This document shows positions 3,047 through 24,990 of a stretch of 32,000 bases of DNA, piece by piece. Source of the stretch: Candidatus Saccharimonadota bacterium (GTDB lineage Bacteria > Patescibacteriota > Saccharimonadia > Saccharimonadales > Saccharimonadaceae). The translations under genes were made by a program, and so were the position numbers. Numbering within the stretch: position 1 is the first letter of the stretch; every line of letters begins with the position of its first letter. The notes below the pieces were generated by a model. The model made no database searches. It saw only the letters and a list, made by a program, of their open reading frames with translations, and was not told the origin of the DNA. The stretch spans positions 70,297 through 102,296 of the forward strand of contig JAFWJH010000003.1 of assembly GCA_017511645.1 (NCBI GenBank), read 5' to 3'.

Positions 3047-3055
3047 TGGTGCGCG
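3047..3055. repeat. left copy of a 9-nt direct repeat, TGGTGCGCG (antisense of tRNA 3' end CGCGCACCA); candidate island junction
   Basis: Identical 9-mer at 24900-24908, which is the 3' end of tRNA-Leu on the minus strand. A random 9-mer match in 32 kb is not rare, so this rests on context. Confidence 0.4.
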
Positions 3056-3303
3056 TAATCCAAATCTTTACGAACCACTCTGTAACGCAATTGATTACAT
3101 AATTTCGCATTCGGACTACCGCCCTACTTATATTCTAGTTGAAAGCAATATAATTGTCAATGAACGAGATTTTATATATTAGGGCTATGACAGCCAATGC
3201 ATTTACGAACCAGTAATACAAAAATAAGTGAATAATGCTAAGTAGGACAACCTAACACCATCATTGTCATCGTAAAAGCTCTCTTTAGAGCTTCCATTGT
3301 CAA

Positions 3304-3312
3304 TGTTATAAT
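3304..3312 (+). promoter_or_regulatory. extended -10 element TGTTATAAT
   Basis: TGtTATAAT lies 46 nt upstream of the ATG at 3358. It is preceded by a 7-bp hairpin AAGCTCT/AGAGCTT at 3276-3293 (stem arms 3276-3282 and 3287-3293). Confidence 0.4.
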
Positions 3313-3357
3313 GGGAATAATACCGCTTTAAGCGCATCCCTAAGAGAAAAGGGCAAT

Positions 3358-3798
3358 ATGGTAAAAAGCCGTATCTACAAGAAGCCAAAGAATGGCGGAC
3401 CGATAGAAGTCACCGCAAGGCAACTAACCGAATTATACGAAAAACACGAAGGTATACTCACCTCGCGTCAATATAATGACTTAAAAGAAATGGTGCTCGT
3501 CGATTCGAGCGTTCGTGATGCTAAATGGGCGCTTAGGGAGTTTGATGACGAGACTTTGCTTGGAACTTGGGACAAAGAAATGCGCTATGGCTACGGAAAA
3601 CGCATTTATATTCACTTAGACCGCGAAGACGAGGATAAATATTATTTCTCTCTCGCCTATATCCCACGTGCCCTAAATAACCGCGACGTAAACGAGGCGA
3701 TTTTGCGCATGTATTTTGTCCGGCGTTGGTCGGTTGAGAAGCGCTTTTTGTGGGCGGAACCAATCGATATTACGCCGAGCTATGGTAACGATTTTTAG
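3358..3798 (+). CDS. hypothetical protein
   Basis: 146-aa ORF downstream of an extended -10 element. No recognisable motif. Confidence 0.55.
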   Translation: MVKSRIYKKPKNGGPIEVTARQLTELYEKHEGILTSRQYNDLKEMVLVDSSVRDAKWALREFDDETLLGTWDKEMRYGYGKRIYIHLDREDEDKYYFSLAYIPRALNNRDVNEAILRMYFVRRWSVEKRFLWAEPIDITPSYGNDF

Positions 3799-3919
3799 AA
3801 AATAAAACTACAATAAGTCAATGGAGGGTATCCACTTGATCACAAACGGTGTTTCGGTCTGTTTCGTGCATAAAACAGGGGTAGAAATTTTTCTTGACGA
3901 GAAATGGTGAGATATGTTA

Positions 3920-4909
3920 TTATTTACCGTTAATTTTGGCTTCAATTTCAGCAAGTTCAGTTATCAAATCATCAAAATCTGGACGTTCACCATAAATCAT
4001 GCCTGCCATCTTTGAATAATCACGCTTTAAAGCTTCCTTGTGAATATTAGACGGAATAAGTTTGAGCGAACCGATTCTGGCTGAGTCATACTCTGCCCAT
4101 TTTCGCGGATAAAACTTAGCTTTAAAATCAGCAACTTGCTTTAGTAAATCAGATTGAGCTAGAGCCTTATCGAGCACGCCAAGTTTCGCCATGCGATAAA
4201 TGTCGTAATAATGACGCGATATTCTCGGAGGGACAGGCAAATCATCTGGGCGGTTAGCTTCGTGATGCAAGATTGTTGCCTTCTCCCAGAAAGTGCGTTC
4301 TGGTGTAGTAGTGCGGACCGAAACGGAAGCATCACTGAACTGCGCTGGATAGACCTCGGCGATATACGGTCGGATAGTGGAGGCTTCAGTGGGCGTCCAA
4401 GCCGCTTTGGCGCCGATTTCAAGCCGAATTACGTGCAGAATAGACTCATCTGCATAATCATTCCCATACCCGACGATAATCGCATCATCATCGTAGCCGA
4501 TATTGATGCCGCGATTTATAAGATTTGTAAGATCTTCCTTGAGTTTAGGAATGAATGTGGATCTTAAAAATTTCTCAGTCTTTACATCGAATTCCTTATT
4601 TAGCGCATCCTGTTTTGTATTCGAGCGGTTCTCTAGTGGTTCTTTCGTTCCAAAACCAATCACGCGCCAATCCAAAATTAAATCAATATCTTCGGAAAAA
4701 CGCTCGATGAGATTAAAAGCCTTAGATAAACTCGTGCCGCCTTTAAAAGCAAGATTATCTTTCCATGGGCTTTTAGTAAAAAGATAGTCGAGGATAGCAC
4801 AAACGAAGAGGTCTTTTTCGATAATGGCAGGACTTAAATTTTTAGCTTCAGAAACTTTTCCAATGATTATTGATAATTCATCCTTCGGAAGATTTACTAG
4901 ATCATACAT
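3920..4909 (-). CDS. abiEii: nucleotidyltransferase AbiEii/AbiGii-family toxin (type IV TA)
   Basis: 329 aa with ..LAFKGGTSLSKAFNLIERFSEDIDL.., the characteristic AbiEii NTase motif region. It starts 1 nt after the stop of the upstream antitoxin gene. Confidence 0.85.
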   Translation of the reverse strand: MYDLVNLPKDELSIIIGKVSEAKNLSPAIIEKDLFVCAILDYLFTKSPWKDNLAFKGGTSLSKAFNLIERFSEDIDLILDWRVIGFGTKEPLENRSNTKQDALNKEFDVKTEKFLRSTFIPKLKEDLTNLINRGINIGYDDDAIIVGYGNDYADESILHVIRLEIGAKAAWTPTEASTIRPYIAEVYPAQFSDASVSVRTTTPERTFWEKATILHHEANRPDDLPVPPRISRHYYDIYRMAKLGVLDKALAQSDLLKQVADFKAKFYPRKWAEYDSARIGSLKLIPSNIHKEALKRDYSKMAGMIYGERPDFDDLITELAEIEAKINGK

Positions 4910-4910
4910 C

Positions 4911-5510
4911 TTAAACCTCGCAAATCTTCTTTATTACTTCGTAAATCCAATTCGTAGTAGGCTTTGCTTCGGCTAGTAGTTTCTCTTTTTCCGCAACCGA
5001 AGTTTTTCCAGCTAACTGCTCAATAATATCTTTCGAGGCATGCTCAGGCCCCAAAGCCTTAATAGCCTGTATGATAAGCATTGTTTTTCTCGACATACCA
5101 TTTAGTTCTCGATCTGCACGGTGGATAAAGTTGATGGAACGATTATCGATTTGATAGCTTTTCGAGTCGCCACTGCTAAGATATTCCCACTTTGCTGGAA
5201 CTTGCGTTGAAAGGCCGAGTAAGTTTAAGGCCGTATTGCCGTCTGGAGCGATAGTCCAGTTATTCTTGCGTGCGATTGTCTCAGCAACAGCATTAATGTC
5301 TGGCGCTGAATTTTCCTGTAGGATTTCAGAAAAAGCTGGTTTATCGTAAATACCGGGTAAAATTCGACGAATCTTACCTTCGCCTTCGAGACGAGAAAAG
5401 ATTTGACGAAGATTATTATCTGCTGTTATATCAGCAAAATCAGAGGTCGTGAAAACACTACCGTCTGGCATATCTATAATTCTTTTTTCAGCTAATTCGT
5501 GATTGCTCAT
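4911..5510 (-). CDS. abiEi: AbiEi-family antitoxin / transcriptional autoregulator (wHTH, DUF6088-like)
   Basis: 199 aa, upstream of and coupled to abiEii. The N-terminal ..FTTSDFADI..RQIFSRLEGEGKIRRILPGIYDKP.. resembles the AbiEi winged-helix domain. AGGAG RBS and TATAAT lie upstream. Confidence 0.7.
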   Translation of the reverse strand: MSNHELAEKRIIDMPDGSVFTTSDFADITADNNLRQIFSRLEGEGKIRRILPGIYDKPAFSEILQENSAPDINAVAETIARKNNWTIAPDGNTALNLLGLSTQVPAKWEYLSSGDSKSYQIDNRSINFIHRADRELNGMSRKTMLIIQAIKALGPEHASKDIIEQLAGKTSVAEKEKLLAEAKPTTNWIYEVIKKICEV

Positions 5511-5633: not shown

Positions 5634-6782
5634 ATGAAAATATTATTTTCATCTGACGTGTGTGAATACCAAATAAGCGGGGCTCATAATTCAAACGCTG
5701 CATTAAAAGATGAGCTAAGAAAACTGGGGCATGATGTCCGGATGCTTGTTTTATCTCCAAACGGTAAATCATATTTTAAGGATAATAATTATTATATTGC
5801 GTCTAAGCCGATTCCGGTTTATCCGGGGGCAAGGTTTAGTTTAAAAACACATGATAAGTTGATACAAAAAATCATAGATTGGAAACCCGATATTGTCCAT
5901 GCTCAATCAGAATTTACCACTAAAATTCTTGCAAATAAAATAATAAAAACCCTCAATATTCCATTTGTGGCAACATGCCATACATTATACGAAGATTATA
6001 CTGAATATTTTTGCCCAAACAAGAAACTTGGCAAGAAAATTGTGAAAATTATGAGCAATAAAATCTATAACACTTCGGCGACGCTAATTGTCCCGTCGGA
6101 AAAGGTAAAAGCTGTAATGGAAAAATATGGTATAAAATGCCCGATAGAAATCATTCCTTCCGGTATAGATATGAATATCTATAAGAAAAGATTGCCCAAA
6201 AAAGAAAAAACGAAAATTTTATCCGAATTAGGTTTGCAAAATTCTAATAAATATTTAGTAACAGTATGCAGATTGGCAGCAGAAAAGAATATAGATGAGT
6301 TACTTAGGTATTTGCCAGCATTAACAAAAAGAGACAAAGACATAAAACTAATCATAGTGGGGGATGGACCATATAAAACAAAATTAGTTAAGGAAATAAA
6401 TAAATTGGATATGAGTGACCATGTGATTTTTACCGGTGCGATTTTGCGAGATGAAATATACAAATATTATCAATTGGGGAATATTTTCGTATCAGCATCA
6501 ACGAGTGAGACGCAAGGGCTAACATATGTAGAGGCATTAGCATCTGGGATGCCCATGGTCTGCAAAAAAGATAAATGTCTAGATAGGATAATAGAAAAAG
6601 GTAGCAACGGATTTGTTTTTGAAAATGAAGATGATTTTATAGAAGGTGTTGAGTCTATATTAAACAATAAGATATTGATGGATGATATGCATAAAAATTC
6701 CTTGAAAAAATCCAATAATTTTAGCAAAGAAGAGTTTGGTATAAAAGTCGAAAGATTATATAAAAAAGTATTAGACATATAG
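5634..6782 (+). CDS. GT4 glycosyltransferase, diacylglycerol glycosyltransferase (glycolipid synthase)-like
   Basis: 382 aa. It has MKILFSSD.., ..DIVHAQSEFT.., ..CHTLYEDYTEY.. and the E-x7-E region ..SETQGLTYVEALASGMPMV... This resembles the alpha-monoglucosyl-DAG synthase type of GT4 enzymes. Confidence 0.8.
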   Translation: MKILFSSDVCEYQISGAHNSNAALKDELRKLGHDVRMLVLSPNGKSYFKDNNYYIASKPIPVYPGARFSLKTHDKLIQKIIDWKPDIVHAQSEFTTKILANKIIKTLNIPFVATCHTLYEDYTEYFCPNKKLGKKIVKIMSNKIYNTSATLIVPSEKVKAVMEKYGIKCPIEIIPSGIDMNIYKKRLPKKEKTKILSELGLQNSNKYLVTVCRLAAEKNIDELLRYLPALTKRDKDIKLIIVGDGPYKTKLVKEINKLDMSDHVIFTGAILRDEIYKYYQLGNIFVSASTSETQGLTYVEALASGMPMVCKKDKCLDRIIEKGSNGFVFENEDDFIEGVESILNNKILMDDMHKNSLKKSNNFSKEEFGIKVERLYKKVLDI

Positions 6783-6803
6783 CCGTAATTTTGGCGGCGG
6801 GTA

Positions 6804-6812
6804 TGATATAAT
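6804..6812 (+). promoter_or_regulatory. extended -10 element TGATATAAT for the 17-gene operon
   Basis: Exact TGATATAAT in the 209-nt gap between the GT4 stop (6782) and the preferred SDR start (6992). Confidence 0.45.
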
Positions 6813-6819
6813 AAAAATA

Positions 6820-6991
6820 GTTCTAGATTTCAATTTCATGGTAAGTCTACCCCTAACAAGGTAGTGTGAAATATCGAACCCTGCGTGGAGCACTCGCTCC
6901 AGTTGGCTCGATAGCTTACTGTGAAAAATGAAGTCTAGAACACTCCATGGCGAGTGTTCCACTTGGTTATGGGGATAGTATGGAGAAAATC
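6820..6991 (+). promoter_or_regulatory. long, relatively GC-rich structured 5' leader (candidate cis-regulatory RNA, class unknown)
   Basis: Local hairpins: CTACC/GGTAG (6847-6864), TGGAGC/GCTCCA (6886-6901) and GAACACTC/GAGTGTTC (6938-6959). A possible long-range helix pairs GTTCTAGA (6820-6827) with TCTAGAAC (6934-6941) and competes with the last hairpin. CTCC at 6943-6946 is complementary to the SD GGAG at 6982-6985. Confidence 0.3.
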
Positions 6992-7990
6992 ATGAAAAAG
7001 ATCTCACGTAGAGTATTAGTTACTGGCGCTTATGGATTTTTAGGTAAGTATGTTATTGCCGAATTTTTGGATAACGGATATATTGTCGTTGCTTTTGGCA
7101 GAAATAAGCAAAAAATGTCAGCTTTAAAGCAGCAATATCCGGAAATCGAATTGGCTTACGGAGATTTATGTAGTTCGTCAGATTGCTTAAAGGCTACGAA
7201 AAATATTAATATTGTCGCTCATCTCGGTGCACTTTCAACTGTGTGGGGTAAACGATCCGATTTTTTAAAAACCAATGTCGATGGTACTAAAAACATCTTG
7301 GAAGCCTGTCGTAAAAACAAAGTTAATAAACTCGTGTACATATCATCTCCCAGTATTTATGCTGGCAAATCCGATAAATTAGATATAGACGAAGATGATT
7401 ATGATAGAGACAACAAATTGAACTACTATATTGAAAGTAAAATTCTAGCCGAGAAAGCTATTGAGAAATATGATGACATTAATTGGACAATACTTCGCCC
7501 ACGAGGATTATTTGGGGTAGGTGATACAAGTATCGTTCCTAGACTAATACATGCTAACAAGAAAATAGGATTGCCTTTGTTTGGGGGCGGAAAGAACTAT
7601 GTAGATATGACGTGCGTCGAAAATGTCGCATACGCAGTGAGGCTCGCAGCAGAAAGTAAAAAGTCATCACATAAGATTTATAATATCACCAATGATGAGC
7701 CGCAAGAATTCAAAGGATTGCTGGAGGAATTATTTAAGCAACTTGGCGAAACACCAAGATACAAGAATATTAACTTAAGATTCGCCATCTCGACCGCAAC
7801 CGCCATAGAATCAATTTATAAGGTTTTTCATATTTATAAAGAGCCACCAATTACTAAATATACTATCTGCACTTTGGGCTATAGCCAGACTTTAAATATT
7901 GACAAAGCGAAGCGAGATTTGGGATATAAACCAAAGATGACATTAAGCGAAGGAATCGAGAAATATGCAACCAGCCATCAAAAGTGTTAA
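6992..7990 (+). CDS. extended SDR, NAD(P)-dependent epimerase/dehydratase / 3-beta-HSD-like reductase
   Basis: Rossmann motif VLVTGAYGFLG near the N-terminus and YxxxK as YIESK. I prefer the ATG at 6992 (GGAG 6 nt upstream) over the ORF-track start at 6947. Confidence 0.8.
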   Translation: MKKISRRVLVTGAYGFLGKYVIAEFLDNGYIVVAFGRNKQKMSALKQQYPEIELAYGDLCSSSDCLKATKNINIVAHLGALSTVWGKRSDFLKTNVDGTKNILEACRKNKVNKLVYISSPSIYAGKSDKLDIDEDDYDRDNKLNYYIESKILAEKAIEKYDDINWTILRPRGLFGVGDTSIVPRLIHANKKIGLPLFGGGKNYVDMTCVENVAYAVRLAAESKKSSHKIYNITNDEPQEFKGLLEELFKQLGETPRYKNINLRFAISTATAIESIYKVFHIYKEPPITKYTICTLGYSQTLNIDKAKRDLGYKPKMTLSEGIEKYATSHQKC

Positions 7991-8759
7991 GTATTTTAGT
8001 TGTGGATATTGTACAAATAACCTCGGTCGAGTTTTTAAGGGTATGCGTGGCGAAAAAAGAAAATTCCCAGCCGGAGCATTTTTGATTGAGCACGCTAAGC
8101 ATGGGCTGATTCTTTTTGATACAGGTTATTCTGCTAATATTTGTAAAACTGGTTTTGTTGGTAGAGCTTATAATTTCTTTAATCCCACATTAGTAGAAGA
8201 AAATGACGAGCTAAAGTATCAACTTAGTAAAATCGGGACTCGGCCGGAGGATATTAAGACAATCATACTGTCGCATTTGCACCCAGACCATATTGGTGGG
8301 CTTAGGAGTTTTGGCAAGGCGAATTTTATTGTCTCAAAAGAAACTATAAATACATACAAAAATAGAAGGATACGAGATTTAATAATGCAGCGTTTCTTTC
8401 CTGCCGATTTTGAAGATAGGGCTAACGTAATTTCAGATAAAATGATGGTAACTGAAGTTCTTGGTGCACTGAAAGGTTATGACTTGTTTAATGACGGCAG
8501 TTTAATTTTATTAAAGCTAGGTGGTCATGCTAGCGGTCAATTGGGCACTCTAATAGATAATAAGATTTTGTTAGCAGCAGACTCATGTTGGGGGAATGAT
8601 TTAATTGATCTATCGTACCATATGAAGTTTCCCGCATCATTAATACAGGACAATATGAGAGAATATCGTAATACCCTAGATAACTTAAAGTTATTAAAGA
8701 AAAAAGGTATTAATCTGGTATTTAGTCATGATGTAAATAATAAAAAGGAGCTACTATGA
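7965..8759 (+). CDS. MBL-fold metallo-hydrolase (lactonase/thioesterase-like)
   Basis: 264 aa with SHLHPDHIGG (HxHxDH) and later GGHASG and D/H ligand positions. It overlaps the SDR gene by 26 nt. Confidence 0.8.
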   Translation: MQPAIKSVKYFSCGYCTNNLGRVFKGMRGEKRKFPAGAFLIEHAKHGLILFDTGYSANICKTGFVGRAYNFFNPTLVEENDELKYQLSKIGTRPEDIKTIILSHLHPDHIGGLRSFGKANFIVSKETINTYKNRRIRDLIMQRFFPADFEDRANVISDKMMVTEVLGALKGYDLFNDGSLILLKLGGHASGQLGTLIDNKILLAADSCWGNDLIDLSYHMKFPASLIQDNMREYRNTLDNLKLLKKKGINLVFSHDVNNKKELL

Positions 8760-10033
8760 ATAAAGGCTTAATTCTTAAAACATTTATTCGTGCCCGCTAT
8801 TTTCACAAATTTAAAAGTCGAAGGAGGCTGGAAAAATATCAGCAAAAGCAGACAAAAAAACAACTAGATTTCTTCGAACGCCATTCCCCGTATTTCCAAA
8901 AGTTTAGTGGCAAAACTTTTGAAGAGTTGCCGTATATGAATAAAAAAGTCATGATGGATAATTTTGACAGAATGAATACAGCCGGAATATCAAAGGACGA
9001 TGCCCTTAAGCTAGCTATTAATAGCGAAAAAAGCCGTGATTTTTCAGAAAAGCTGAATGGCTACTCTGTTGGGCTGTCATCTGGGACAAGTGGACACCGT
9101 GGGGTGTTTGTCCTTAGCGACGACGAAATCGCAACGTGGGTGGGTGGCATGATGGCAAAAATGCTACCGAAAGGTAAGATCTTTGGGACCAAAGTTGCGT
9201 TTTTCCTTCGGGCCGACAATAACTTATATGAGTCATCAAATAGTAAGATACTTAAATTTGAGTTTTTTGACATCTTAAAGCCAATGGAACAAAATATAAT
9301 AAAATTACAGGAGTTTCAGCCGACAATTTTGGTCGCACCGCCATCTGTACTGCTCATACTAGCGGAGACTGCCAAAGTCAAGAAGCTGAGCATTAATCCA
9401 GTAAGGATTATATCAGTTGCAGAAGTATTAACAGAAAAAGACGAACAATATTTGAAAAGGGTTTTCAAGCAAAAGATAATATACCAAGTATATCAATGCA
9501 CCGAAGGGTTCCTTGGATACACTTGCGAGTATGGCTCCCTACATCTCAACGAGGATGTTGTAGTGGTTGAAAAGGAGTATCTTGACGACACAAGATTTAC
9601 TCCGGTTATCACGGACTTTGTTAGGACGACTCAACCTATTGTCAAATATCGATTAAACGATATTTTGGTTGAAGATAGAAGGCCATGTAAATGCGGGACA
9701 TCTATGACAAGGCTTAAAAAGATCGAAGGAAGGATGGATGATGTTTTTGAATTTGATGGCGTAAATGATAGAACGATAAAAGTATTCCCTGATTTTATTT
9801 CCAGAGTGGTACTCTACGTGCCCAAAATAAAGAATTATAGAGTAGTACAAGAATCATCCAAAAAAGTCATTTTTTATCTAGATAATATAGACATTGAAAA
9901 TCAAAGACTAATCAAAGAAGAGTTAAAAACTCTCGCTAAGAGAATGCGTTTCAAAATGCCAGCCACTACTTTTAAGAAATATGAATCTGATTTTAGTAAA
10001 AAGATGAAGCGAGTGGAAAGGATAAAAAAATGA
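8756..10033 (+). CDS. PaaK / coenzyme F390 synthetase-related adenylate-forming enzyme
   Basis: 425 aa with GLSSGTSGHRGVF (P-loop-like ANL motif of the PaaK/F390 clade). ATGA start/stop overlap with the MBL gene. Confidence 0.7.
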   Translation: MNKGLILKTFIRARYFHKFKSRRRLEKYQQKQTKKQLDFFERHSPYFQKFSGKTFEELPYMNKKVMMDNFDRMNTAGISKDDALKLAINSEKSRDFSEKLNGYSVGLSSGTSGHRGVFVLSDDEIATWVGGMMAKMLPKGKIFGTKVAFFLRADNNLYESSNSKILKFEFFDILKPMEQNIIKLQEFQPTILVAPPSVLLILAETAKVKKLSINPVRIISVAEVLTEKDEQYLKRVFKQKIIYQVYQCTEGFLGYTCEYGSLHLNEDVVVVEKEYLDDTRFTPVITDFVRTTQPIVKYRLNDILVEDRRPCKCGTSMTRLKKIEGRMDDVFEFDGVNDRTIKVFPDFISRVVLYVPKIKNYRVVQESSKKVIFYLDNIDIENQRLIKEELKTLAKRMRFKMPATTFKKYESDFSKKMKRVERIKK

Positions 10034-10962
10034 GAAATTGTAAAATATCGGGCTATGGATATTATTTACCAAAAAACATAGTGACATTTGGTAATCAAAT
10101 TAGGTACAGAGCTTCAGGCAAGGAAAATCAACTTTTTATGGCGACAAATGCCGCTAAAAAGGCGATGAAAAATGCTAGGCTAAAACCAGAAAATATTGAT
10201 TTGATAATAGCCGCTTCGGCAGTAGGTATCCAACCAATCCCCTGTACGGCAAGCTTAATTCATGAACAAATAATGAACGACTACAACATTCCTGCTATGG
10301 ATATTAATACTACTTGTACTAGCTTTATAACCGCACTGGATATTGCATCGTATCTGATTGCAGCTGGAACATATAAAAATATCTTAATTGTATCAAGCGA
10401 GCTGGCTAGCCCTGGGCTTCCGAAAGATAAAAAAGAAATCTATGAACTATTCTCTGACGGAGCCGCGGCAATTGTACTTTCTCATACTAACGATACGAAA
10501 CGAGGTGTAATAGCCTCTAAACAGTGCACTTGGTCAGAAAGCGCGCACGCGACAGAAATTGTAGGTGGATTAACCGGACTTAATGCCACTAAAATGAACA
10601 ATAAAAACCGAGACAAATATTACTTTAAAATGGAGGGGCTCGATATATTACGTGCATGCACGCGAAAATTACCAAAAATGTTTGACGATTTTGAAAAAGA
10701 GACTAATCTATCATTGGACGATGTAGACTTAGTAATCCCACATCAGGCGAGCAAGGCATTGCCCTTGATTATGAAAAAATTGGGAGTACCAGAAGAAAAA
10801 TACGTTAATCGTGTTGATAACTTTGGTAATCAAGTGTCCGTTTCGGTTCCATTCATGTTATGCAAAATGCTAGAAGAAGGAAAAATCCATACTAGTGACA
10901 AAGTAATGCTATGTGGGACTGCAGCAGGGTTAACATCTAATATATTATTAATGGAGATATAA
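10030..10962 (+). CDS. KAS III / FabH-like thiolase-fold condensing enzyme
   Basis: 310 aa. Candidate Cys-His-Asn triad in DINTTCTSF, VIPHQAS and NFGNQVSVS. ATGA overlap with the upstream gene. Confidence 0.85.
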   Translation: MRNCKISGYGYYLPKNIVTFGNQIRYRASGKENQLFMATNAAKKAMKNARLKPENIDLIIAASAVGIQPIPCTASLIHEQIMNDYNIPAMDINTTCTSFITALDIASYLIAAGTYKNILIVSSELASPGLPKDKKEIYELFSDGAAAIVLSHTNDTKRGVIASKQCTWSESAHATEIVGGLTGLNATKMNNKNRDKYYFKMEGLDILRACTRKLPKMFDDFEKETNLSLDDVDLVIPHQASKALPLIMKKLGVPEEKYVNRVDNFGNQVSVSVPFMLCKMLEEGKIHTSDKVMLCGTAAGLTSNILLMEI

Positions 10963-10963
10963 A

Positions 10964-11200
10964 ATGTTGGAAGAATTTAAAAAGTTTCTAGATGAGGAAT
11001 TGGGCATAGACGATGATATTACATTAGAAACTAGCCTAAGAGACGATTTGATGATTGATAGCTTGGCGACTACGCAATTAGTGCTCTCACTTGAAGAAAA
11101 ATACAATATAAAAGTAGAGCAAAGCGAGCTCGCTAAACTAAAGACCGTAAAGAATTGTTTGGATTTGCTAGCGGAGAAAGGTATAGAAAGTGCCAATTGA
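10964..11200 (+). CDS. acyl carrier protein (ACP-1)
   Basis: 78 aa, acidic, with the phosphopantetheine site motif LMIDSLATTQLV. Confidence 0.8.
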   Translation: MLEEFKKFLDEELGIDDDITLETSLRDDLMIDSLATTQLVLSLEEKYNIKVEQSELAKLKTVKNCLDLLAEKGIESAN

Positions 11201-18526: not shown

Positions 18527-19665
18527 AACCAATTCGAAAAATCACAAATATAGAGCAATTATATGAGGATGTACAGAGCGCAACCAATGCATATGCAATA
18601 CAGTTCATTCTAAAAACTAGCAGCATTAAAAATAAAGATATAATTGAATGTGTAATTAGGCGAGTAATAAAAGAATGCCCAGAATTTAATGTCTATCTAA
18701 GAAGGGGTAAATTTTATCCACAGCAGCATCCAATCAGTATCCAAGATATTAAAATCAAGGATTCTATTGTCTATAGTCTAGATTTATTTAATCAAAAAAT
18801 AGATCTAATTAGCCACTCAATGGAAGTCTATCTTGTGAAGGCGCCCAAGAGCGATTATTTAGTGTTTCGATTCGCCCATTCGGCAATGGACGGAAAGAGT
18901 GCCCTTCTTTTTATGCAAAACATTGTAAATCTACTAGGCGGGAAAAAGCCACTAAAATGCAAAAAAGCTATCTCCGAGAAAGATTTCTTAAAGAAACTAG
19001 ACTACTACAAGAAGAAAGAACCAAAATTACCCCGAATTATCCATGACGAAGCGTCGATTATCAAACAATACACGACAAGGTGGCAAGTCGTACAATTAGA
19101 CAAGTATGTTTCGGGTATTATAGCCAAACTTTCGTGCCTTTTAGCTCGGGAATTTGAAAGCGACCGGATAAGAGTAATGGTGCCTGTAGATTTAAGACGT
19201 CACGACGGCAACAATCCATATATAGGCAATCTGACCTTGCCAGTTTTTCTAGATGTAGATAAGAGCGATAGTTATACCAAGATTAATGGTGAGCTGTTGT
19301 ATAGCTTGAAGAACAGCAAAGAGTTAAACATCGGCAATACTTTGAACAATTATTATTGTCGTATGCCAAGTTTGTTGCGAAAGACGGGCGTAAAAATTGG
19401 ATGCATGGCAAGTCGACACTACAATAAATTTTCCGTCGGCGCCGTCATATCGCATTTAGGCAGAATAGATTTAAATGAATATTCCAATAAATATTTTAAA
19501 GCTAAAGATTTCGTAGACTTATCAATACAACAACCTCTAGGTGCATTCTCGATAGTTATAGTAGAATGTTCCCATAAGACAAATATCAGTATAGGTTACT
19601 ACGGAGATCAATTCACTGAAGAATATATGAAGTCTCTCATAAAAAAGATAGAGAGGTTAGCATGA
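18523..19665 (+). CDS. condensation/acyltransferase-like protein with HxxxDG motif
   Basis: 380 aa with a GTG start in a GTGA overlap. FRFAHSAMDGKS fits the HxxxDG catalytic motif of C-domain, WS/DGAT and PapA-type acyltransferases. The rest is not recognisable by eye. Confidence 0.45.
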   Translation: MKPIRKITNIEQLYEDVQSATNAYAIQFILKTSSIKNKDIIECVIRRVIKECPEFNVYLRRGKFYPQQHPISIQDIKIKDSIVYSLDLFNQKIDLISHSMEVYLVKAPKSDYLVFRFAHSAMDGKSALLFMQNIVNLLGGKKPLKCKKAISEKDFLKKLDYYKKKEPKLPRIIHDEASIIKQYTTRWQVVQLDKYVSGIIAKLSCLLAREFESDRIRVMVPVDLRRHDGNNPYIGNLTLPVFLDVDKSDSYTKINGELLYSLKNSKELNIGNTLNNYYCRMPSLLRKTGVKIGCMASRHYNKFSVGAVISHLGRIDLNEYSNKYFKAKDFVDLSIQQPLGAFSIVIVECSHKTNISIGYYGDQFTEEYMKSLIKKIERLA

Positions 19666-20081
19666 AAAGTCAAAATTGCCGAGTCGTTAATGGGCTAGTA
19701 ATTCATCACATAGGAGTTGCCACCAATAATTTAGATGAATTAACGGACGAATATCTGCGGGATGGTTATCAAATTACAAACGAGGTCTATGACCCCGGAC
19801 AAAAGGCTAAGTTGCGGTTACTTAGTAAGGATAATCAAAACAGCATAGAGCTAATATATACAGATAATCCAGAATCGCGAGTTTTCAATTTGTCACACAA
19901 CAACTATAAGAAAGAATACCACACCTGTTTTAAAATAAACAATCTTGATCGCGCCATTAAAGTATTCAAAAAAGATGGCTATTCTTTAATCACTAATATT
20001 GAAATAGCTAAATTGTTCAATGGCAGGATATGCTTTATGTACAAGAGCGGTAAACTAATAGAATTAATGGAGGAAATATGA
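19662..20081 (+). CDS. VOC (glyoxalase/bleomycin-resistance/dioxygenase) family protein, methylmalonyl-CoA epimerase-like
   Basis: 139 aa with two beta-alpha-beta-beta-beta half-modules: ..IHHIGVATNNLDE.. and ..YHTCFKINNLDRAIKVFKKDGY...ELMEE. Confidence 0.6.
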   Translation: MKSQNCRVVNGLVIHHIGVATNNLDELTDEYLRDGYQITNEVYDPGQKAKLRLLSKDNQNSIELIYTDNPESRVFNLSHNNYKKEYHTCFKINNLDRAIKVFKKDGYSLITNIEIAKLFNGRICFMYKSGKLIELMEEI

Positions 20082-21649
20082 AAAAGATTTACTGTTATCG
20101 TGATACCGCAATTGAATACTTATTCAAAGACGTAGAAACTATATCGTATAGCGCATATGGTGATATTAAACTATTGAACGACGACACAGATATAATGATT
20201 TTCTATATGCTACCATATGATTATTCTATTAAAGATTTAGTGTCGACGATTAATAGCTATTTTGAACGAGCGAAATACATCATAAACAATTATCCAAATA
20301 GGACAATATTTGCAATAACCCTACATAATTATTTTTACGAATCATTCGTTTTCGGAAATAATGAATTAGAGAAAGCTATTAACTCATATAATGAATATCT
20401 ATATAGCCAGAAAAATGTCAGGGTTATAGATATAGCGCCATTTTATAATAATCATAACGACGTATTTAACCCAAAGTATTATTACTTATATAATGCAATA
20501 ATAAACCCGTCTCTTGCGAAAGATTTTCGGCGTTTTATTTTAGATAAGATGGCGCTGTTTCGAGGAACTCGAAAAAAATGCCTAATCCTAGATTTAGATA
20601 ATACTTTGTGGGGTGGTATTCTGGGTGAAGACGGATTGGCAAATTTACAAATCAGCGGCTCCTATCCAGGCAATTGTTTTCATAGTTTTCAACAAATGGT
20701 TTTGGAGCTAAAAAATCAAGGTATTCTGCTAGGGATTTGCAGCAAAAATAACTATAATGATGTAGTCCTGTGCTTCGAAAAAAGAGATGATTTGGTATTG
20801 TCTCTGGATGATTTTGCTGCCAAAAAGATAAATTGGTCAGAAAAAAGACTTAATATTTCTGAATTAGCCAAGGAACTGAATATTGGTTTAGATAGCATTG
20901 TTTTTATAGATGATAGCCCAGCAGAAAGAGAAAACGTAAAAGCATTGGATGGGGTCACAGTCTTAGACTTCCCAGATTCGCCCTATAAAATGGTTGGGCA
21001 CTTCGCCAAAGATTTTTATAGATATTTCGGAACATATCTACTAACAGAAGACGACGTAAATAAAAATATTTACTATAAACATAAAACGGAAAGTGAAGAG
21101 TTGAGAAGCAGAGTCGAAAACGAGGATGAGTTTATAAAAAAATTGAAAATCAAAATAGCCTACGAGACCATAGACGACAATAATAGCGACAGAATCGCTC
21201 AACTGATCAATAAAACGAATCAGTTCAATTTAACAACTAGGCGTTACGATAAAACCGAATTAGCTAATATGACTGACGCGCTAATAATAGCAATAAAAGT
21301 AAGCGATAAATTCGGAGATCTTGGCCTTACCGGAGTTGCAATAGTTAGAAAAAACAAAGAAGAAGCAACTATAGATACATTTTTAATGAGTTGCAGAATA
21401 TTAGGCAGAAAAATTGAGCGAGAGTTTCTAAAAATCGTATTAAATGAACTAAAAATATTAGGGGTTAAAACGGTCATAGGCGAGTACATAGATAGCAAAA
21501 AGAACGAGCAGACTAAAACATTCTATAGTGATAATGGATTTCGAAAAGTTCCAAATCATTCTCGTGAGGTTCAGCGTTTCAAATACACGCTAACTAAACC
21601 GTTGAAGTATAATAATAATTACATAGTGGAGAAAAAAGATGGAAAATAG
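20078..21649 (+). CDS. FkbH-like HAD-IIIC family protein
   Basis: 523 aa. HAD motif I in CLILDLDNTLWGGILGEDG, then ..GICSKNN.. and ..VFIDDSPAERE... The C-terminal domain has ..FLMSCRILGRKIEREFL.., typical of FkbH-like proteins. Confidence 0.8.
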   Translation: MKKIYCYRDTAIEYLFKDVETISYSAYGDIKLLNDDTDIMIFYMLPYDYSIKDLVSTINSYFERAKYIINNYPNRTIFAITLHNYFYESFVFGNNELEKAINSYNEYLYSQKNVRVIDIAPFYNNHNDVFNPKYYYLYNAIINPSLAKDFRRFILDKMALFRGTRKKCLILDLDNTLWGGILGEDGLANLQISGSYPGNCFHSFQQMVLELKNQGILLGICSKNNYNDVVLCFEKRDDLVLSLDDFAAKKINWSEKRLNISELAKELNIGLDSIVFIDDSPAERENVKALDGVTVLDFPDSPYKMVGHFAKDFYRYFGTYLLTEDDVNKNIYYKHKTESEELRSRVENEDEFIKKLKIKIAYETIDDNNSDRIAQLINKTNQFNLTTRRYDKTELANMTDALIIAIKVSDKFGDLGLTGVAIVRKNKEEATIDTFLMSCRILGRKIEREFLKIVLNELKILGVKTVIGEYIDSKKNEQTKTFYSDNGFRKVPNHSREVQRFKYTLTKPLKYNNNYIVEKKDGK

Positions 21650-21854
21650 AATAAAAGAAATAATGGAACAGACATTTAGGCAAAGTATAAACGACAACTT
21701 CTCTAAAAATGATACTGACAAATGGGACTCGTTTACTCATTTAGATCTGATTGTAAAATTAGAACAGGAGTTTAAAATTTCTTTTTCACCAGAAGAGATA
21801 GGAAGCATTGAATCTTATAATGATATAAAAAAGATTATTAAGAGTAAGTTCTAA
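21639..21854 (+). CDS. acyl carrier protein (ACP-2), partner of the FkbH-like protein
   Basis: 71 aa with the site motif KWDSFTHLDLIVKLE. It overlaps the FkbH-like gene by 11 nt. Confidence 0.7.
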   Translation: MENRIKEIMEQTFRQSINDNFSKNDTDKWDSFTHLDLIVKLEQEFKISFSPEEIGSIESYNDIKKIIKSKF

Positions 21855-21857
21855 AAG

Positions 21858-22379
21858 ATGAAAGTCTACATAACGCGAATTAAAAACGGAGATCGTAAAA
21901 CATTATCTAGCCAAATATTGAAATATTCATATAGAGATACATATGGCAGAAATATAAATATTGCAAAAATTCACAAAGGCGAATACGGGAAACCCTATTA
22001 TGACAATAATTTCTACTATAATATCAGCCATTCCAAAAATTTTCTTTGTATAGCGACGGACGAAAACGAGATTGGAATAGATATAGAAGAGTCGCGGTCT
22101 GTCAACTCCAATCTTTCGAAAAGGATTCTGGCAAAAGATGAGGATGTCATCGATGAAGACATTTTAAATAATTGGGTGATTAAGGAAGCTTACAGTAAAT
22201 ATCTAGGTCTCGGTCTTAATGTTGATTTTCGCGATATATCTACAAGCGATATTATGGGGCATGAAAATGTCACCAATTTATCTACGAACGACTATGTTTG
22301 TTTTGTTATTTCAAAAAAACCATCAGATATTAAGGTAACTTACCTAAAAGAAGAGGATTTAGTCAAAGCTGGTTGTTGA
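21858..22379 (+). CDS. Sfp-type 4'-phosphopantetheinyl transferase (short)
   Basis: 173 aa with GKPYY..YYNISHSKNF..IGIDIEE.. and WVIKEAYSKYLGLG. Confidence 0.8.
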   Translation: MKVYITRIKNGDRKTLSSQILKYSYRDTYGRNINIAKIHKGEYGKPYYDNNFYYNISHSKNFLCIATDENEIGIDIEESRSVNSNLSKRILAKDEDVIDEDILNNWVIKEAYSKYLGLGLNVDFRDISTSDIMGHENVTNLSTNDYVCFVISKKPSDIKVTYLKEEDLVKAGC

Positions 22380-22841: not shown

Positions 22842-22898
22842 AATGTTTGTATTTAACCTTATTCTGTAAATTTTACAAGTCAAAAAAAACAAATAACG

Positions 22899-22976
22899 TG
22901 CTATAATAGAATCAGCTTCGAGTTAGAGATGCTCTCGGAGCCCAAGCAATGCGGCAGTAGAATGCTCGCATTTTTT
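22899..22976 (+). ncRNA. candidate small transcript or attenuator: extended -10, two hairpins, intrinsic terminator
   Basis: TGCTATAAT lies at 22899-22907. Hairpin 1 is GCTTCGAG/CTCGGAGC (22915-22941). Hairpin 2 is AATGCGGCA-gtagaa-TGCtCGCATT, followed by TTTTTTATTT (22948-22980). No ORF lies between promoter and terminator. Confidence 0.3.
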
Positions 22977-23051
22977 ATTTATACACGCGTTTATCAAATT
23001 GCGGGATAAATTGCGTCACTAAAGCCTAAGAGGCTACGCAAGGAGTTCTTT

Positions 23052-23192
23052 ATGGACGAAGACAAAGAAGCGTCCACGGCTATCGCCAGTCTGTTTAACG
23101 TTCTGAAAAACATTAAAGTCACGCCAGAACGCATAGCACAAAATCAATGGAAATCGGTGGGCAAAAATGGCGAAGTTGAATTTTACTATTAA
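23052..23192 (+). CDS. small hypothetical protein (46 aa) upstream of the recombinase
   Basis: Not in the ORF track (under 60 aa). AAGGAG lies 6 nt upstream of the ATG. Translation: MDEDKEASTAIASLFNVLKNIKVTPERIAQNQWKSVGKNGEVEFYY. A strong hairpin follows. Confidence 0.4.
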   Translation: MDEDKEASTAIASLFNVLKNIKVTPERIAQNQWKSVGKNGEVEFYY

Positions 23193-23215
23193 AACAAATA
23201 TAATTCACAAAATCT

Positions 23216-23250
23216 AAAATCTCTAGTCAAAAGGCTAGAGATTTTTATAT
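23216..23250 (+). terminator. hairpin terminator after the small ORF
   Basis: AAAATCTCTAG-tcaaaagg-CTAGAGATTTT, an 11-bp stem, followed by TATAT. Confidence 0.55.
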
Positions 23251-23282
23251 TAAGCGGCCGCCTAGCATTTCCACCTCTGTTA

Positions 23283-23291
23283 TGATATAAT
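23283..23291 (+). promoter_or_regulatory. extended -10 TGATATAAT giving a leaderless recombinase mRNA
   Basis: Exact TGATATAAT. Only 7 nt separate the -10 from the ATG at 23299, and there is no SD. Confidence 0.45.
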
Positions 23292-23298
23292 AAAATCA

Positions 23299-24963
23299 AT
23301 GAAAAGCAAATCAATTGTGGCAATAAAAACCGATATAGACGAGCAGCCATTGCTTCGCTATGTCCTTTATGCACGCAAATCCTCTGAAGATGTCGGCGCA
23401 CAAGCTAAATCTCTTCCTGATCAGATTAAAGATTGCTTAGCTTATGCAGAAACTCATGGCTTGGTCGTCGTGGATATTTTAAAAGAGTCTCATTCGGCTA
23501 AAATCTCCGGGCGTCGACCGATATTTTCCAAAATGCTAAAAGATCTTGAGGTCGGCAAGTATGACGGCATTCTTACCTGGCACCCAGACCGCCTTGCGAG
23601 AAATTCACTCGAAGCCGGAATGATTGTCGACATGGTAGATAACGGCGTAATCAAAGACCTTAAATTTCCGATGTTTAATTTTACGAATGACTCAAATGCA
23701 AAACTACTCCTTAACATCGTTTTTGCAATGTCCAAGCAATATTCAGAACATTTAAGCGAGAGTGTCCAACGCGGCGTCAACTCTAACCTCGCCCAAGGAA
23801 AATCTGGCGGTATGCCAAAATGGGGCTATAACCGCGACGAAGTAACAGGGTTTTATGAACCAGACCAGAATTTCGACATCATTAGGCGAGGATTCGATAT
23901 GTACCTTGAAGGTTATAGCCAAAGAGATATTATTGATTTCTGGCGACAAAACGATGTTCATCGTATGACGAAAATTAATCGTAAAAACAAAAATAAACGA
24001 AAAATTACCGTATATAACAGCGTCTCGGTTCTTGGTACGATCTTAAGTGATCCATTTTATTATGGTATCCTTGTCCAGGGCGGGCAGAGGGTAGATTTAC
24101 GTGAAATATTACCAGATTTCAAGCCGATGATAACTGAAGAGGAGTTCGGATTAATTCAAGCAAAACGTAGGAAGCTCAAAAAAGTTGTCTCTGCTTCCGT
24201 AAAAGCCGAAGAAGGTAAAGTATTTATCCCATTCCGTCAGATGGTAAAATGTGGTGAATGTGGTAATTTTATGCACGTAGCACGCTCAAAATCACGTACT
24301 GGTAAGAAATATCTCTACTTCCGCTGCGGAAATCCGGAATGCAGCAGAAAACAAAAAAGCGTTCGCGCGCAAGTAGTTTTAGATGCTTTATATAGGACGC
24401 TTGATAACCTACGTTTCACGAAAAGAGACATTTCAAAAATCCAAAATAGTTTAACGAATTATATAAACGTTCGCCATAACGAGCTGACTACGGAGAAACT
24501 TCGCGTCAATGCGGCCATAAAAGCCAAGAAGCGTCGCCAAGATGAATTGGCTCAGGCTTTCATTGATCTCGGCAAAGATGCGCCAAAAGAGGCTAAACAG
24601 ATGGTGAGTGAACAGCTTGAAGAATGCCGGAACGATATAGCAACTTTGCAGACTGAGCGTGATGAGATTGAAGCTAAAATCTTCGATCCAGACCAAGTTC
24701 GCGAAATTCTGGATGAGCTTACGAACCAGCTGGATTCCATCGGTGACAAGATGAAATCTGGCGATTCCTGGCAAAAAGACCAGTTGGCCCGAAATATGCT
24801 TGCGAACCTAGAAATTTCCAATAAAAATGAGGTTTCTTTCAGATGGAAGAAACCTCTAAAGCACATATTTAGCAATGCTTCAACCGAAGAATTTCGGCCT
24901 GGTGCGCGCGACTGGACTCGAACCAGCACAGCCGTAAATGTGGCCACTACCACCTCAAGGTAG
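23299..24963 (+). CDS. large serine recombinase (integrase)
   Basis: 554 aa. The N-terminal resolvase domain has YARKSSED (catalytic Ser region) and ..HPDRLARN..SESVQRG... It also has a recombinase domain, the zinc ribbon CGECG..FRCGNPEC and a coiled-coil region. The last 64 nt overlap tRNA-Leu antisense. Confidence 0.9.
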   Translation: MKSKSIVAIKTDIDEQPLLRYVLYARKSSEDVGAQAKSLPDQIKDCLAYAETHGLVVVDILKESHSAKISGRRPIFSKMLKDLEVGKYDGILTWHPDRLARNSLEAGMIVDMVDNGVIKDLKFPMFNFTNDSNAKLLLNIVFAMSKQYSEHLSESVQRGVNSNLAQGKSGGMPKWGYNRDEVTGFYEPDQNFDIIRRGFDMYLEGYSQRDIIDFWRQNDVHRMTKINRKNKNKRKITVYNSVSVLGTILSDPFYYGILVQGGQRVDLREILPDFKPMITEEEFGLIQAKRRKLKKVVSASVKAEEGKVFIPFRQMVKCGECGNFMHVARSKSRTGKKYLYFRCGNPECSRKQKSVRAQVVLDALYRTLDNLRFTKRDISKIQNSLTNYINVRHNELTTEKLRVNAAIKAKKRRQDELAQAFIDLGKDAPKEAKQMVSEQLEECRNDIATLQTERDEIEAKIFDPDQVREILDELTNQLDSIGDKMKSGDSWQKDQLARNMLANLEISNKNEVSFRWKKPLKHIFSNASTEEFRPGARDWTRTSTAVNVATTTSR

Positions 24964-24990
24964 CGTGTCTACCAATTCCACCACGCGCGC
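24900..24990 (-). tRNA. tRNA-Leu (anticodon GAG), class II with long variable arm, CCA encoded
   Basis: The reverse complement GCGCGCG-TG-GTGGAATTGGTAGACAC-G-CTACC-TTGAGGT-GGTAG-(variable arm)-GCTGG-TTCGAGT-CCAGT-CGCGCGC-A-CCA folds by hand into a cloverleaf with a perfect 7-bp acceptor stem. Confidence 0.9.

Follow-up and report, generated by a model that had tools for sequence, protein, structure and literature searches.

A large serine recombinase island at the 3' end of a tRNA-Leu gene in Saccharibacteria, with a predicted attachment site inside its integrase gene

The window analysed here, a 32,000-nucleotide stretch of a rumen Candidatus Saccharibacteria chromosome, hosts at 3056-24908 what is very probably a 21,853-bp integrative island with its own serine recombinase, an attP inside the integrase gene and an embedded replacement terminator for its target. 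According to the proposed mechanism, the large serine recombinase of the island would insert it site-specifically into the 3' end of tRNA-Leu(GAG), with the crossover within TGGTGCGCG, the 9 bp common to element and target. As these 9 bp cover the encoded CCA, the discriminator base and five bases of the acceptor stem, the tRNA stays intact, while its own terminator would stay behind at the far end of the island. The attachment site of the element would lie 41 codons ahead of the integrase stop; the free or rejoined element would produce a 578-aa integrase, and insertion would relocate the 41 terminal codons to the island's left end, fusing the other 537 to 17 tRNA-antisense codons. A hairpin with a T-run opposite the 3' coding region of the integrase could terminate the tRNA transcript, replacing the lost terminator.

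Island boundaries and empty sites

The features that delimit the island are the following:

3047..3055, plus strand: left (attL) repeat of the 9-bp core TGGTGCGCG, which is antisense to CGCGCACCA at the tRNA 3' end
24900..24908, plus strand: attR copy of the 9-bp core (sequence match, empty-site alignments)
24900..24990, minus strand: tRNA-Leu(GAG) with encoded CCA, intact, the integration target (ARAGORN)
3015..3046, stem 3022-3036, bidirectional: chromosomal hairpin with an A-run before and a T-run after it (terminator scan)

The repeat of the 9-mer at 3047 and 24900, reported in the initial annotation of this DNA, is real, and a window-wide search for exact matches adds a copy at 1891-1899 that had been missed (3 copies observed versus 0.13 expected; 3 reached in 0 of 100 shuffles). 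This third copy falls within an SBP_bac_5 gene and, since that gene is also present in island-free relatives, it lies outside the island and is unrelated to it. The site without the island had been predicted to read …CTTTTTTTCG-TGGTGCGCG-CGACTGG…, and it is present in two island-free relatives. The closer one (contig L012, with a flank protein 95% identical to that of the window) matches the prediction to the base, reading ...gccctagaggcatctttttttcg-TGGTGCGCG-cgactggactcgaacc...; its positions 1-1201 align with window 1866-3055 at 97.3% and its positions 1193-2247 with window 24900-25954 at 99.6%, the two alignments sharing exactly the 9-mer. The more distant one (L011, flank protein 83%) has the same arrangement, with the gene order SecG-SBP-246aa-tRNA-Leu(-)-347aa-313aa. 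The region 3056-5500, which would be conserved chromosome in such relatives if the left boundary were misplaced, is missing from both. The two empty sites thus define the insertion as 21,853 bp with the 9-mer at both ends, and L012 and L011 both provide the uninterrupted site, with boundaries at a tRNA-end repeat, by which tRNA islands are recognized. The GC content of the island is 0.374, versus 0.433 and 0.428 in the flanks.

The tRNA-Leu(GAG), the single tRNA found by ARAGORN in the window, is kept whole after insertion and is identical in sequence to the tRNA at the L012 empty site. The hairpin with A-run and T-run described earlier to the left of 3047 is found by the terminator scan, its stem at 3022-3036 having the tail CTTTTTTTCG. 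It was expected to follow the tRNA directly once the island was removed, and in L012 and L011 it does lie immediately after the tRNA 3' end, which identifies 3015-3046 as the displaced terminator of the tRNA, now 21.85 kb away from it.

The integrase and its family

23299..24963, plus strand: large serine recombinase, integrated form, 554 aa (Pfam PF00239, PF07508 and PF13408; ORF list)

The ORF next to the tRNA, correctly taken for a large serine recombinase from the start, carries the Pfam domains Resolvase, Recombinase and Zn_ribbon_recom. The catalytic domain PF00239 spans residues 22-168 (E = 1.4e-20), with Y24, R26, K27, S28 and S29 invariant or nearly so in 18-51 homologues, and the zinc-ribbon cysteines C318, C321, C343 and C348 are invariant in the family. 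A coiled coil is predicted by the AlphaFold2 model of the family member P0025, with long helices at 376-424 and 431-461 (pLDDT 83-94). The best PDB matches are 9dxd and 9dxh, from SPbeta SprA/YokA (E = 3e-8 to 6e-8, residues 23-474), and phage serine integrases share no more than 27% identity with the island enzyme. Neither a tyrosine integrase nor any other second recombinase is found among the annotated island ORFs with Pfam, NCBIfam and PHROG. The empty sites, together with this sole recombinase abutting the junction, support the initial view of a serine-recombinase island at the tRNA-Leu 3' end, and the enzyme is the likely catalyst of the insertion of its own island.

Homologues of this integrase read into the antisense of a tRNA 3' end at about 40 loci in Saccharibacteria and other phyla of the candidate phyla radiation (CPR), the ORF ending within the antisense tRNA at 29 of the 38 best GTDB loci and at 10 more. 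The target tRNAs are those for Lys, Leu, Met, Pro, Ser, Ile, Gln, Asp, His, Ala, Gly, Val and Arg, and among the hosts are Saccharibacteria, Peregrinibacteria, Peribacteria, Paceibacterota, Gracilibacteria and further groups. One remote member of the family, P0097 (L015/L016), does have Replic_Relax and a TrwB-like ATPase.

Attachment sites and excision

Serine-integrase att sites are about 40-50 bp long and imperfectly dyad-symmetric, and their crossover spans 2 bp. The identity between the attP and attB partners is just 9 bp, consistent with short serine-integrase sites, and the cores of nine loci intersect in TGG plus 3 nt; the crossover probably lies within the shared 9 bp. The weak inverted repeat initially noted around attP does not rise above chance, as 217 of 500 shuffles reach its best score in an ungapped dyad scan; for attB, the figure is 198 of 500. 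Excision by serine integrases requires a recombination directionality factor, and none is recognisable among the island ORFs. The candidates for this role are two conserved backbone ORFs without a family match:

3358..3798, plus strand: conserved backbone ORF, 146 aa (76% protein identity in the L018 island, 55% in L104)
22898..23200, plus strand: conserved part of the backbone ahead of the integrase gene (tblastx 76-96%)
23052-23192, plus strand: 46-aa ORF in this backbone, nearly identical in L013 and L018

The 146-aa ORF has no Pfam, PHROG or NCBIfam match, and the 22898-23200 region with its 46-aa ORF is a candidate for either a regulator or a directionality factor. The circular junction that would reveal excision, the search for which had been suggested at the outset, was found neither in a 15-billion-protein collection, where the exact 578-aa and 572-aa proteins do not occur, nor in metagenomes, where 12 of 12 matches to the left-end pattern are attL junctions and none is attP, nor in IMG/VR.

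This result would fit a fixed remnant that was inserted once and lost excision, its integrated integrase decaying and its read-through into the tRNA meaningless. The absence of transfer genes from the island points the same way, as do the tRNA-antisense extensions, whose differences in length and sequence between loci suggest no selection on them. A remnant is nevertheless unlikely, given that the integrase ORFs are intact at nearly all of the roughly 40 loci, that strains with 97-99.6% flank identity differ in the presence of the island, that a diverged island variant at the same position adjoins 11 distinct host flanks with an almost identical left end, and that the detached integrase tail is under coding constraint.

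A probable split of the integrase gene by integration

3056..3182, plus strand: detached integrase 3' end, 41 codons NPNLYEPLCNAIDYIISHSDYRPTYILVESNIIVNERDFIY, with the stop TAG at 3180-3182, in frame once the ends are joined

The integrase ORF is open through the core, without a stop before the junction, and in the reconstructed rejoined (attP) form it runs on into 3056-3182 to give a 578-aa protein. Integration leaves 537 codons in place and exchanges the last 41 aa for 17 tRNA-antisense codons, those of the integrated form from 24909 onwards (DWTRTSTAVNVATTTSR, then a stop). As read from the sequence, the core would lie inside the integrase ORF and the free and integrated forms would have two different C-termini, the arrangement that defines the Mx8 type. 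The crossing of the junction by the integrase ORF was absent from the initial annotation.

The frame, length and stop of the tail are retained in two diverged islands, L007 at the same site and L018, a 9,027-bp island at tRNA-Lys. Between the window and L018, 15 tail codons are identical, 15 synonymous and 15 non-synonymous, and the differences at the three codon positions number 10, 8 and 23, an excess at the third. The integrase runs uninterrupted into a homologous tail in P0009, P0025, P0097, P0100, P0119 and L024, and likewise in 575-597-aa proteins called in independent samples. The left core is followed by tail ORFs of 44-50 aa in L029, L043, L038, L045, L035 and L055, against a background in which 40-50 open codons occur at only 3.8% of positions. 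In L038, a degraded second integrase is fused to the tail. The contigs with an uninterrupted integrase plus tail could be junctions of tandem arrays instead of circles.

The segment 3056-3182 might instead be conserved as DNA, providing a P' arm and binding sites, with the integrase ending near the core and the continuity of the ORF being incidental. Its first ~28 nt do double as a conserved P' arm, and it is in this part past the core that nucleotide conservation relative to L007 is best; the AlphaFold model gives the tail a pLDDT of only 33-42, so that structural support for a role of the tail is absent. Against this explanation, which appears quite improbable, stand the conservation of the full 44 codons and of the place of the stop, the third-position excess and the contiguous tails of independent samples, and a stop before the core is seen in no family member. 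Hardly credible at all is a coincidental 9-mer, with the segment brought in by homologous recombination of the flanks, a transposase or a tyrosine integrase and the serine recombinase as a passenger: the copy at 1891 shows the 9-mer recurring without an island, but the empty-site alignments already contradict this reading by placing both boundaries exactly at the 9-mer, the island has no other recombinase, and about 40 homologous integrases adjoin tRNA 3' ends in the same geometry.

A putative replacement terminator

24829..24856, minus strand: terminator-like hairpin GAGGTTTCTTCCATCTGAAAGAAACCTC followed by ATTTTTATT, 43 nt past the tRNA 3' end

For the island with a split integrase gene, the favoured reading, this hairpin is the proposed replacement terminator of the tRNA. 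It sits on the tRNA strand within the integrase codons NKNEVSFRWKKPL, and its stem and T-run suggest that it may terminate transcription. Of 30 family loci, 12 have a hairpin at the equivalent place, with stem sequences that differ between clades; elsewhere on the antisense strand of integrase genes, 1 match occurs in 44,025 nt. Some of this conservation could reflect coding, since the hairpin lies over a conserved protein motif.

Cargo of the island

3920..4909, minus strand: AbiEii nucleotidyltransferase toxin (Pfam)
4911..5510, minus strand: DUF6088 AbiEi-like partner (Pfam)
5634..22379, plus strand: low-GC cargo operon (Pfam and NCBIfam) with genes for a GT4 glycosyltransferase, NAD-epimerase, MBL-fold hydrolase, F390-synthetase-related protein (TIGR02304), KAS III, ACP, BCCP, biotin carboxylase, fused carboxyltransferase, FabD-like protein, FabF, BirA, acyl-CoA ligase, a 380-aa protein of unidentified family, glyoxalase-fold protein, FkbH-domain protein, second ACP and PPTase

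The AbiE toxin-antitoxin pair (3920..5510) is cargo of the island, and the operon, with a GC content of 0.364 versus 0.43 in the flanks, is by its predicted gene content a lipid or polyketide-type biosynthetic cluster. All island ORFs of at least 110 aa, and most of the shorter ones, were compared with Pfam, NCBIfam or PHROGs. The matches are metabolic, toxin-antitoxin and integrase genes and one 60-aa zinc-ribbon protein (a PHROG of unknown function), and a few ORFs have no match. Virion, packaging and lysis genes, which would indicate a prophage, are not among the scanned island ORFs, and neither relaxase, coupling protein nor oriT, the marks of conjugative or mobilizable elements, is found in the island of the window. 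The lineage is usually regarded as lacking fatty acid synthesis of its own; given this host, a complete acetyl-CoA carboxylase with KAS, ACP and FkbH genes of lipid type on a mobile island is of interest.

Comparison with known systems

The island resembles tyrosine-integrase islands and prophages of the Islander/TIGER type in its insertion at a tRNA 3' end with an intact tRNA and a distal direct repeat, as well as in the integrase gene beside the tRNA and the empty sites in relatives; it differs from them in its serine enzyme, in a repeat of only 9 bp and in the overlap of the integrase ORF with the tRNA. SCCmec is a non-conjugative cargo island whose Ccr large serine recombinases target the 3' end of rlmH/orfX without inactivating the gene, and its ccr genes lie in the interior of SCCmec and are left whole on integration. 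Common to both are the non-conjugative cargo, the large serine recombinase and a housekeeping gene left functional at its 3' end, whereas the target here is a tRNA instead of a protein gene and the integrase gene is split. The SPbeta enzyme SprA/YokA has the same domain order as the island integrase and is very distant from it; SPbeta has a protein-coding gene as its target and relies on a separate directionality factor. Among the tycheposons of Prochlorococcus, a minority of 27 of 937 have a large serine recombinase in place of the tyrosine enzyme, and the accessible part of that source makes no mention of an intragenic attP (bioRxiv 10.1101/2020.12.28.424599). As far as that part goes, tycheposons are likewise cargo islands at tRNA genes, in another host phylum, and many of them have replication genes that are not seen in this island.

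The Int of the myxophage Mx8 is a tyrosine recombinase. Its attP lies within int, and integration at an attB in a tRNA region creates a recombinant int with a new 3' end and changed activity (IntP/IntX; PMC6070905). The island shares with it the attachment site inside the integrase ORF and the new 3' end that insertion gives to the integrase gene; it differs in having a large serine recombinase and in exchanging 41 aa for 17, and the elements described here are cargo islands of CPR bacteria instead of a myxophage. Large serine recombinases usually owe their directionality to coiled-coil contacts and a directionality factor. By analogy with Mx8, it is conceivable, if tentative, that an attP inside the integrase gene acts as a built-in directionality switch, with the new tRNA terminator supplied in the same event. 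Only the free element would then make the full-length integrase with the 41-aa tail, competent for attP x attB recombination, and the tail-less or tail-swapped enzyme of the integrated form would be either silent or prone to excision without a separate directionality factor. The exchange of the tail may in this way alter the function of the enzyme.

Significance

Serine integrases are the main tools for the insertion of large DNA segments. Their choice of direction is an actively studied problem, and a clade whose integration rewrites the C-terminus of the enzyme offers a direct and testable handle on it; if true, the switch would be the serine-recombinase counterpart of Mx8 IntP/IntX. The clade also shows a systematic targeting of tRNA 3' ends by serine integrases, in a niche commonly assigned almost entirely to tyrosine integrases. 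Genetic tools are scarce for Saccharibacteria and the other CPR phyla. With integrase and att pairs defined for some 13 tRNA specificities across these phyla, the family would, if these readings hold, provide a ready-made set of tRNA-targeted integrases for the genetically intractable Patescibacteria.

Boundaries of the island and the empty site

The insertion of the island into the 3' end of tRNA-Leu(GAG), the sole tRNA gene in the window (24900-24990, minus strand, CCA encoded), is well supported. The initial annotation had placed the island between this gene and a displaced terminator, and its main elements are found as described. The plus-strand 9-mer TGGTGCGCG (the core), antisense of the tRNA 3' end, occurs at 24900-24908 and at 3047-3055, a hairpin (stem 3022-3036), preceded by an A-run and followed by a T-run, lies just left of the latter copy, and the ORF at 23299-24963 encodes a serine recombinase with Resolvase, Recombinase and Zn_ribbon_recom domains, here called the integrase. 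GC content, 0.43 in the two flanks, drops to 0.374 in the island and 0.364 in its central operon. The predicted empty site, ...gccctagaggcatctttttttcg-TGGTGCGCG-cgactggactcgaacc..., is present in the related contig L012, in which BLAST aligns positions 1-1201 with window 1866-3055 (97.3%) and positions 1193-2247 with window 24900-25954 (99.6%), the overlap of the two alignments being the 9-mer, neither more nor less. A more distant empty site, L011, has the same layout (SecG-SBP-246aa-tRNA-Leu(-)-347aa-313aa). From these two sites, the length of the insertion is 21,853 bp (3056-24908, equivalently 3047-24899). The stretch 3056-24899 is wholly missing from the relatives, where the order of elements makes hairpin 3022-3036 the terminator immediately after the tRNA, as had been proposed for the chromosome before insertion. 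The tRNA-Leu of the window is unaltered, being identical to that of L012. The outcomes named in advance as contradicting this placement of the island were not seen.

These relatives were reached by looking up the exact protein of the left-flank gene (2230-2964) and those of its 82-95% identical homologues, which led to contigs from other rumen metagenomes, two of them empty sites; a scan of genome contigs with the 244-aa left-flank protein returned 450 pattern matches and no true relative. Members of the integrase cluster bear the NCBI name 'Candidatus Saccharibacteria bacterium', and the nearest genome loci are Saccharibacteria and Nanosyncoccus MAGs from rumen and gut. Samples that carry the island are the runs behind ERZ28655603 and ERZ28019020, as well as SRR31077493 and SRR12529293. 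Several short-read assemblies have breaks that do not coincide with the core: L002 and L003 end at about window 3116-3125, some 70 nt into the island from its left side, and other breaks fall inside the tRNA gene (L005 and L006 start at window 24938 and 24962, and scaffold_558 ends at about 24974), possibly owing to strain mixtures or to tRNA sequence common to other genomes. In the 197-kb contig L004, rpsB is split into two ORFs, of 76 and 152 aa (12840-13525), versus one 228-aa ORF in the window (27932-28618), a difference that probably reflects a frameshift in the assembly.

A third copy of the core, at 1891-1899, brings the count in the window to 3, which no shuffle attained, against 0.13 expected. 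This copy is unrelated to the island, since it sits in an SBP_bac_5 gene that is present also in island-free relatives, where it carries the 9-mer too. Its identity to attB extends over 12 nt (1891-1902, TGGTGCGCGCGA, encoding LGARD), probably by chance, and it could act as a pseudo-att site.

Splitting of the integrase gene

No stop codon interrupts the integrase ORF ahead of the core, and in its integrated form it reads into the tRNA antisense sequence, so that the 554-aa product ends in ...EEFRPGAR followed by DWTRTSTAVNVATTTSR and a stop. When the island ends are joined in silico, the frame runs on through 3056-3182, giving a 578-aa protein that ends in ...GAR followed by NPNLYEPLCNAIDYIISHSDYRPTYILVESNIIVNERDFIY and a stop. 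Given the continuity of the frame and the retention of this detached tail in diverged islands, integration splits the integrase gene and swaps its last 41 residues. As judged from sequence comparison, frame continuity across the core is not a single-sequence accident. In the diverged island L007/L008, at the same tRNA and recovered at its left end alone, GAR is followed by YLNLYEPLCGVVEYVIVNPTWRPDFDLVESKLNPELQDFIY and a stop, with frame, length and stop unchanged. The 9,027-bp island L018, at tRNA-Lys(CTT) of Saccharibacteria RGIG5667, has the core TGGTGAGC at each end and the left-end tail GERSPNLYEPLCGAINYIIENPNWRPTYILVQSNIINKPSDFTY, terminated by a stop; between its tail and that of the window, 15 codons are identical, 15 synonymous and 15 non-synonymous, and differences at codon positions 1, 2 and 3 number 10, 8 and 23, respectively, the hallmark of protein-coding constraint. 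The left core copy is likewise followed by an in-frame tail of 44-50 aa in L029 (5,148 bp, tRNA-Leu CAG, with a tail close to that of P0119), L043, L038, L045, L035 and L055; runs of 40-50 open codons are found at only 3.8% of positions in these six loci.

Among 1,500 integrase homologues, the majority terminate in tRNA-antisense peptides, and the homologous tail is uninterrupted in proteins of 575-597 aa (P0009, P0025, which ends in EEFIY, P0097, P0100, P0119 and that of L024, a locus of a Nanosyncoccus MAG). The motif common to the tails of Saccharibacteria clades is approximately φE.(L/I)(C/Y)..φ(D/Q/N)(W/Y)φφ..(P/Q).(Y/W/F)...(F/Y).(Y/F), followed by the stop. In an AlphaFold2 model of full-length P0025, built from 51 sequences, the body is confident, while the tail has a pLDDT of 33-42 and a short helix (544-555) only.

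A proposed replacement terminator within the integrase gene

A terminator-like hairpin with a T-run, GAGGTTTCTTCCATCTGAAAGAAACCTC then ATTTTTATT (24856-24829), lies 43 nt beyond the tRNA 3' end on the tRNA strand, antisense to the 3' coding region of the integrase, and falls within the integrase codons NKNEVSFRWKKPL. Stems of 10 bp or more with a T-run are found in 12 of 30 family loci, 33-45 nt past the tRNA except in L042 (7 nt), with stem sequences that differ between clades (e.g. GGTGATTTATATCTGTAAATCACC and GGGCTCTTTCCAGAGGTAGGAAGGAGCTC); the remaining integrase antisense sequence holds a single such site in 44,025 nt. The likely role of the embedded hairpin would be to end the tRNA transcript, whose own terminator is 21.85 kb off, and to keep antisense transcription out of the integrase gene.

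Attachment sites

The two junctions expected on excision read as follows:

attP junction, reconstructed from the rejoined island ends: ...GAAGAATTTCGGCC-TGGTGCGCG-TAATCCAAATCTTTACGAACC...
attB junction, reconstructed as the repaired chromosome: ...GGCATCTTTTTTTCG-TGGTGCGCG-CGACTGGACTCGAACC...

An inverted repeat had been claimed around the attP core, which proved to be at chance level in an ungapped dyad-symmetry scan of attP and attB against shuffles. Further repeats shared by the two island ends are only 8-11-mers, also at chance level. In nine fully bounded islands, the identity blocks span 8-12 bp and all include TGG (antisense of CCA), their intersection being TGG plus three bases. Provided that the position of crossover is conserved, it would lie within the last six tRNA bases. 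Directly left of the core, the P arm (island DNA flanking the core) of the window contains a small palindrome (24886-24899, CCGAAgaatTTCGG), which is kept in L018 (11584-11601) with compensatory changes (GACCGAGAAATCTCGGTC). The 26 nt preceding the tRNA contain a hairpin of 5 bp or more in 10 of 30 loci, which are not independent, versus 7.9% of other integrase windows.

Distribution and relatives of the integrase

A search of GTDB species genomes with the family profile yielded 578 relatives, the best 80 of which were retained. Of the 38 best loci examined, 29 have an integrase ORF that terminates within a minus-strand tRNA gene, as do 10 additional loci. The target tRNAs are Lys-CTT, Leu-GAG/CAA/TAG/CAG, Met, Pro, Ser, Ile, Gln, Asp, His, Ala, Gly, Val and Arg, and the hosts include Saccharibacteria, Peregrinibacteria, Peribacteria, Paceibacterota, Gracilibacteria, Amesbacteria and Moraniibacteriota, among others. 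This read-in pattern was not seen in more distant proteobacterial homologues. The nearest solved structure is that of the SPbeta integrase (E = 3e-8), and identity to phage serine integrases reaches at most 27%. The uninterrupted P0097 (597 aa), a distant member, is encoded beside a Replic_Relax protein and a TrwB/DUF87-type ATPase (L015 4978-12083; L016), with a 1,918-aa RHS-repeat protein nearby (L015/L016). These neighbours suggest that some members of the integrase clade may belong to transmissible elements.

Excision and tandem arrays

None of the exact-protein, JGI metagenome or IMG/VR searches turned up an attP junction for the window island. The rejoined-form integrases (578 and 572 aa) are absent, by exact look-up, from a collection of 15 billion proteins, and a degenerate pattern of core plus P' arm gave no match in IMG/VR. 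In JGI metagenomes the same pattern matched 12 contigs, all attL of the L007-type island and none attP. Their left ends are near-identical across 60 nt, and together with L008 they adjoin 11 distinct host flanks, in most of which a hairpin and T-run immediately precede the core. This variety of flanks is evidence that the island type is mobile. Contigs with an uninterrupted integrase plus tail (among them JAZLDZ010000058.1, k141_1582184 and scaffold_5655) lack the tRNA and may be circles; they were rejected as proof of circles, because tandem arrays can give the same junction, as in L038. Degraded fragments of a second integrase lie at 1845-3473 of L038, upstream of the island, and the last piece runs through the core into the tail of the island that follows, a fusion that points to these islands being arrayed in tandem at a single tRNA-Met.

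Backbone and cargo

The window island, L018, L104 and L013 share a backbone made up of the tail, an ORF of 146 aa, a stretch of about 300 bp that holds a 46-aa ORF, and the integrase. The window features concerned are:

3358-3798, 146-aa ORF, no family match, kept in L013, L018 and L104 despite wholly different cargo
23052-23192, 46-aa ORF, no family match, likewise kept in these three islands
5634-22379, cargo operon of low GC

Both backbone ORFs are candidates for a regulator or directionality factor; no directionality factor, transfer or virion genes were recognised among the island ORFs, and a prophage or conjugative-element identity was rejected, with zero genes of either kind. The cargo varies: L013 and L018 carry restriction-modification genes, and the window island carries AbiE and a biosynthetic operon. 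This operon encodes a complete acetyl-CoA carboxylase (BCCP, BC, fused CT) and BirA, together with KAS III, a FabD-like protein, FabF, two ACPs, a PPTase, an FkbH-domain protein, a TIGR02304 F390-synthetase-related protein, an acyl-CoA ligase, a GT4 glycosyltransferase and an epimerase. By its predicted gene content, it is a lipid, glycolipid or polyketide-type pathway carried by a mobile element. Saccharibacteria are generally regarded as being without fatty-acid synthesis.

Comparison with known systems

The window island behaves as classical tRNA-integrated genomic islands do, but differs from them in using a large serine recombinase. For an attachment site within the integrase gene, the closest precedent is the myxophage Mx8, whose integrase is a tyrosine recombinase. 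In the literature searched, a limited collection, no serine integrase was reported to have an intragenic attP, and neither tRNA islands of Saccharibacteria nor these CPR islands were described. A minority of tycheposons have large serine recombinases at tRNA genes (bioRxiv 10.1101/2020.12.28.424599). In Mx8, the integrase gene acquires a new 3' end upon integration, and the activity of the integrase changes as a result (PMC6070905). For the islands described here, control of directionality by the swap of the tail would be a plausible, if rather doubtful, role.
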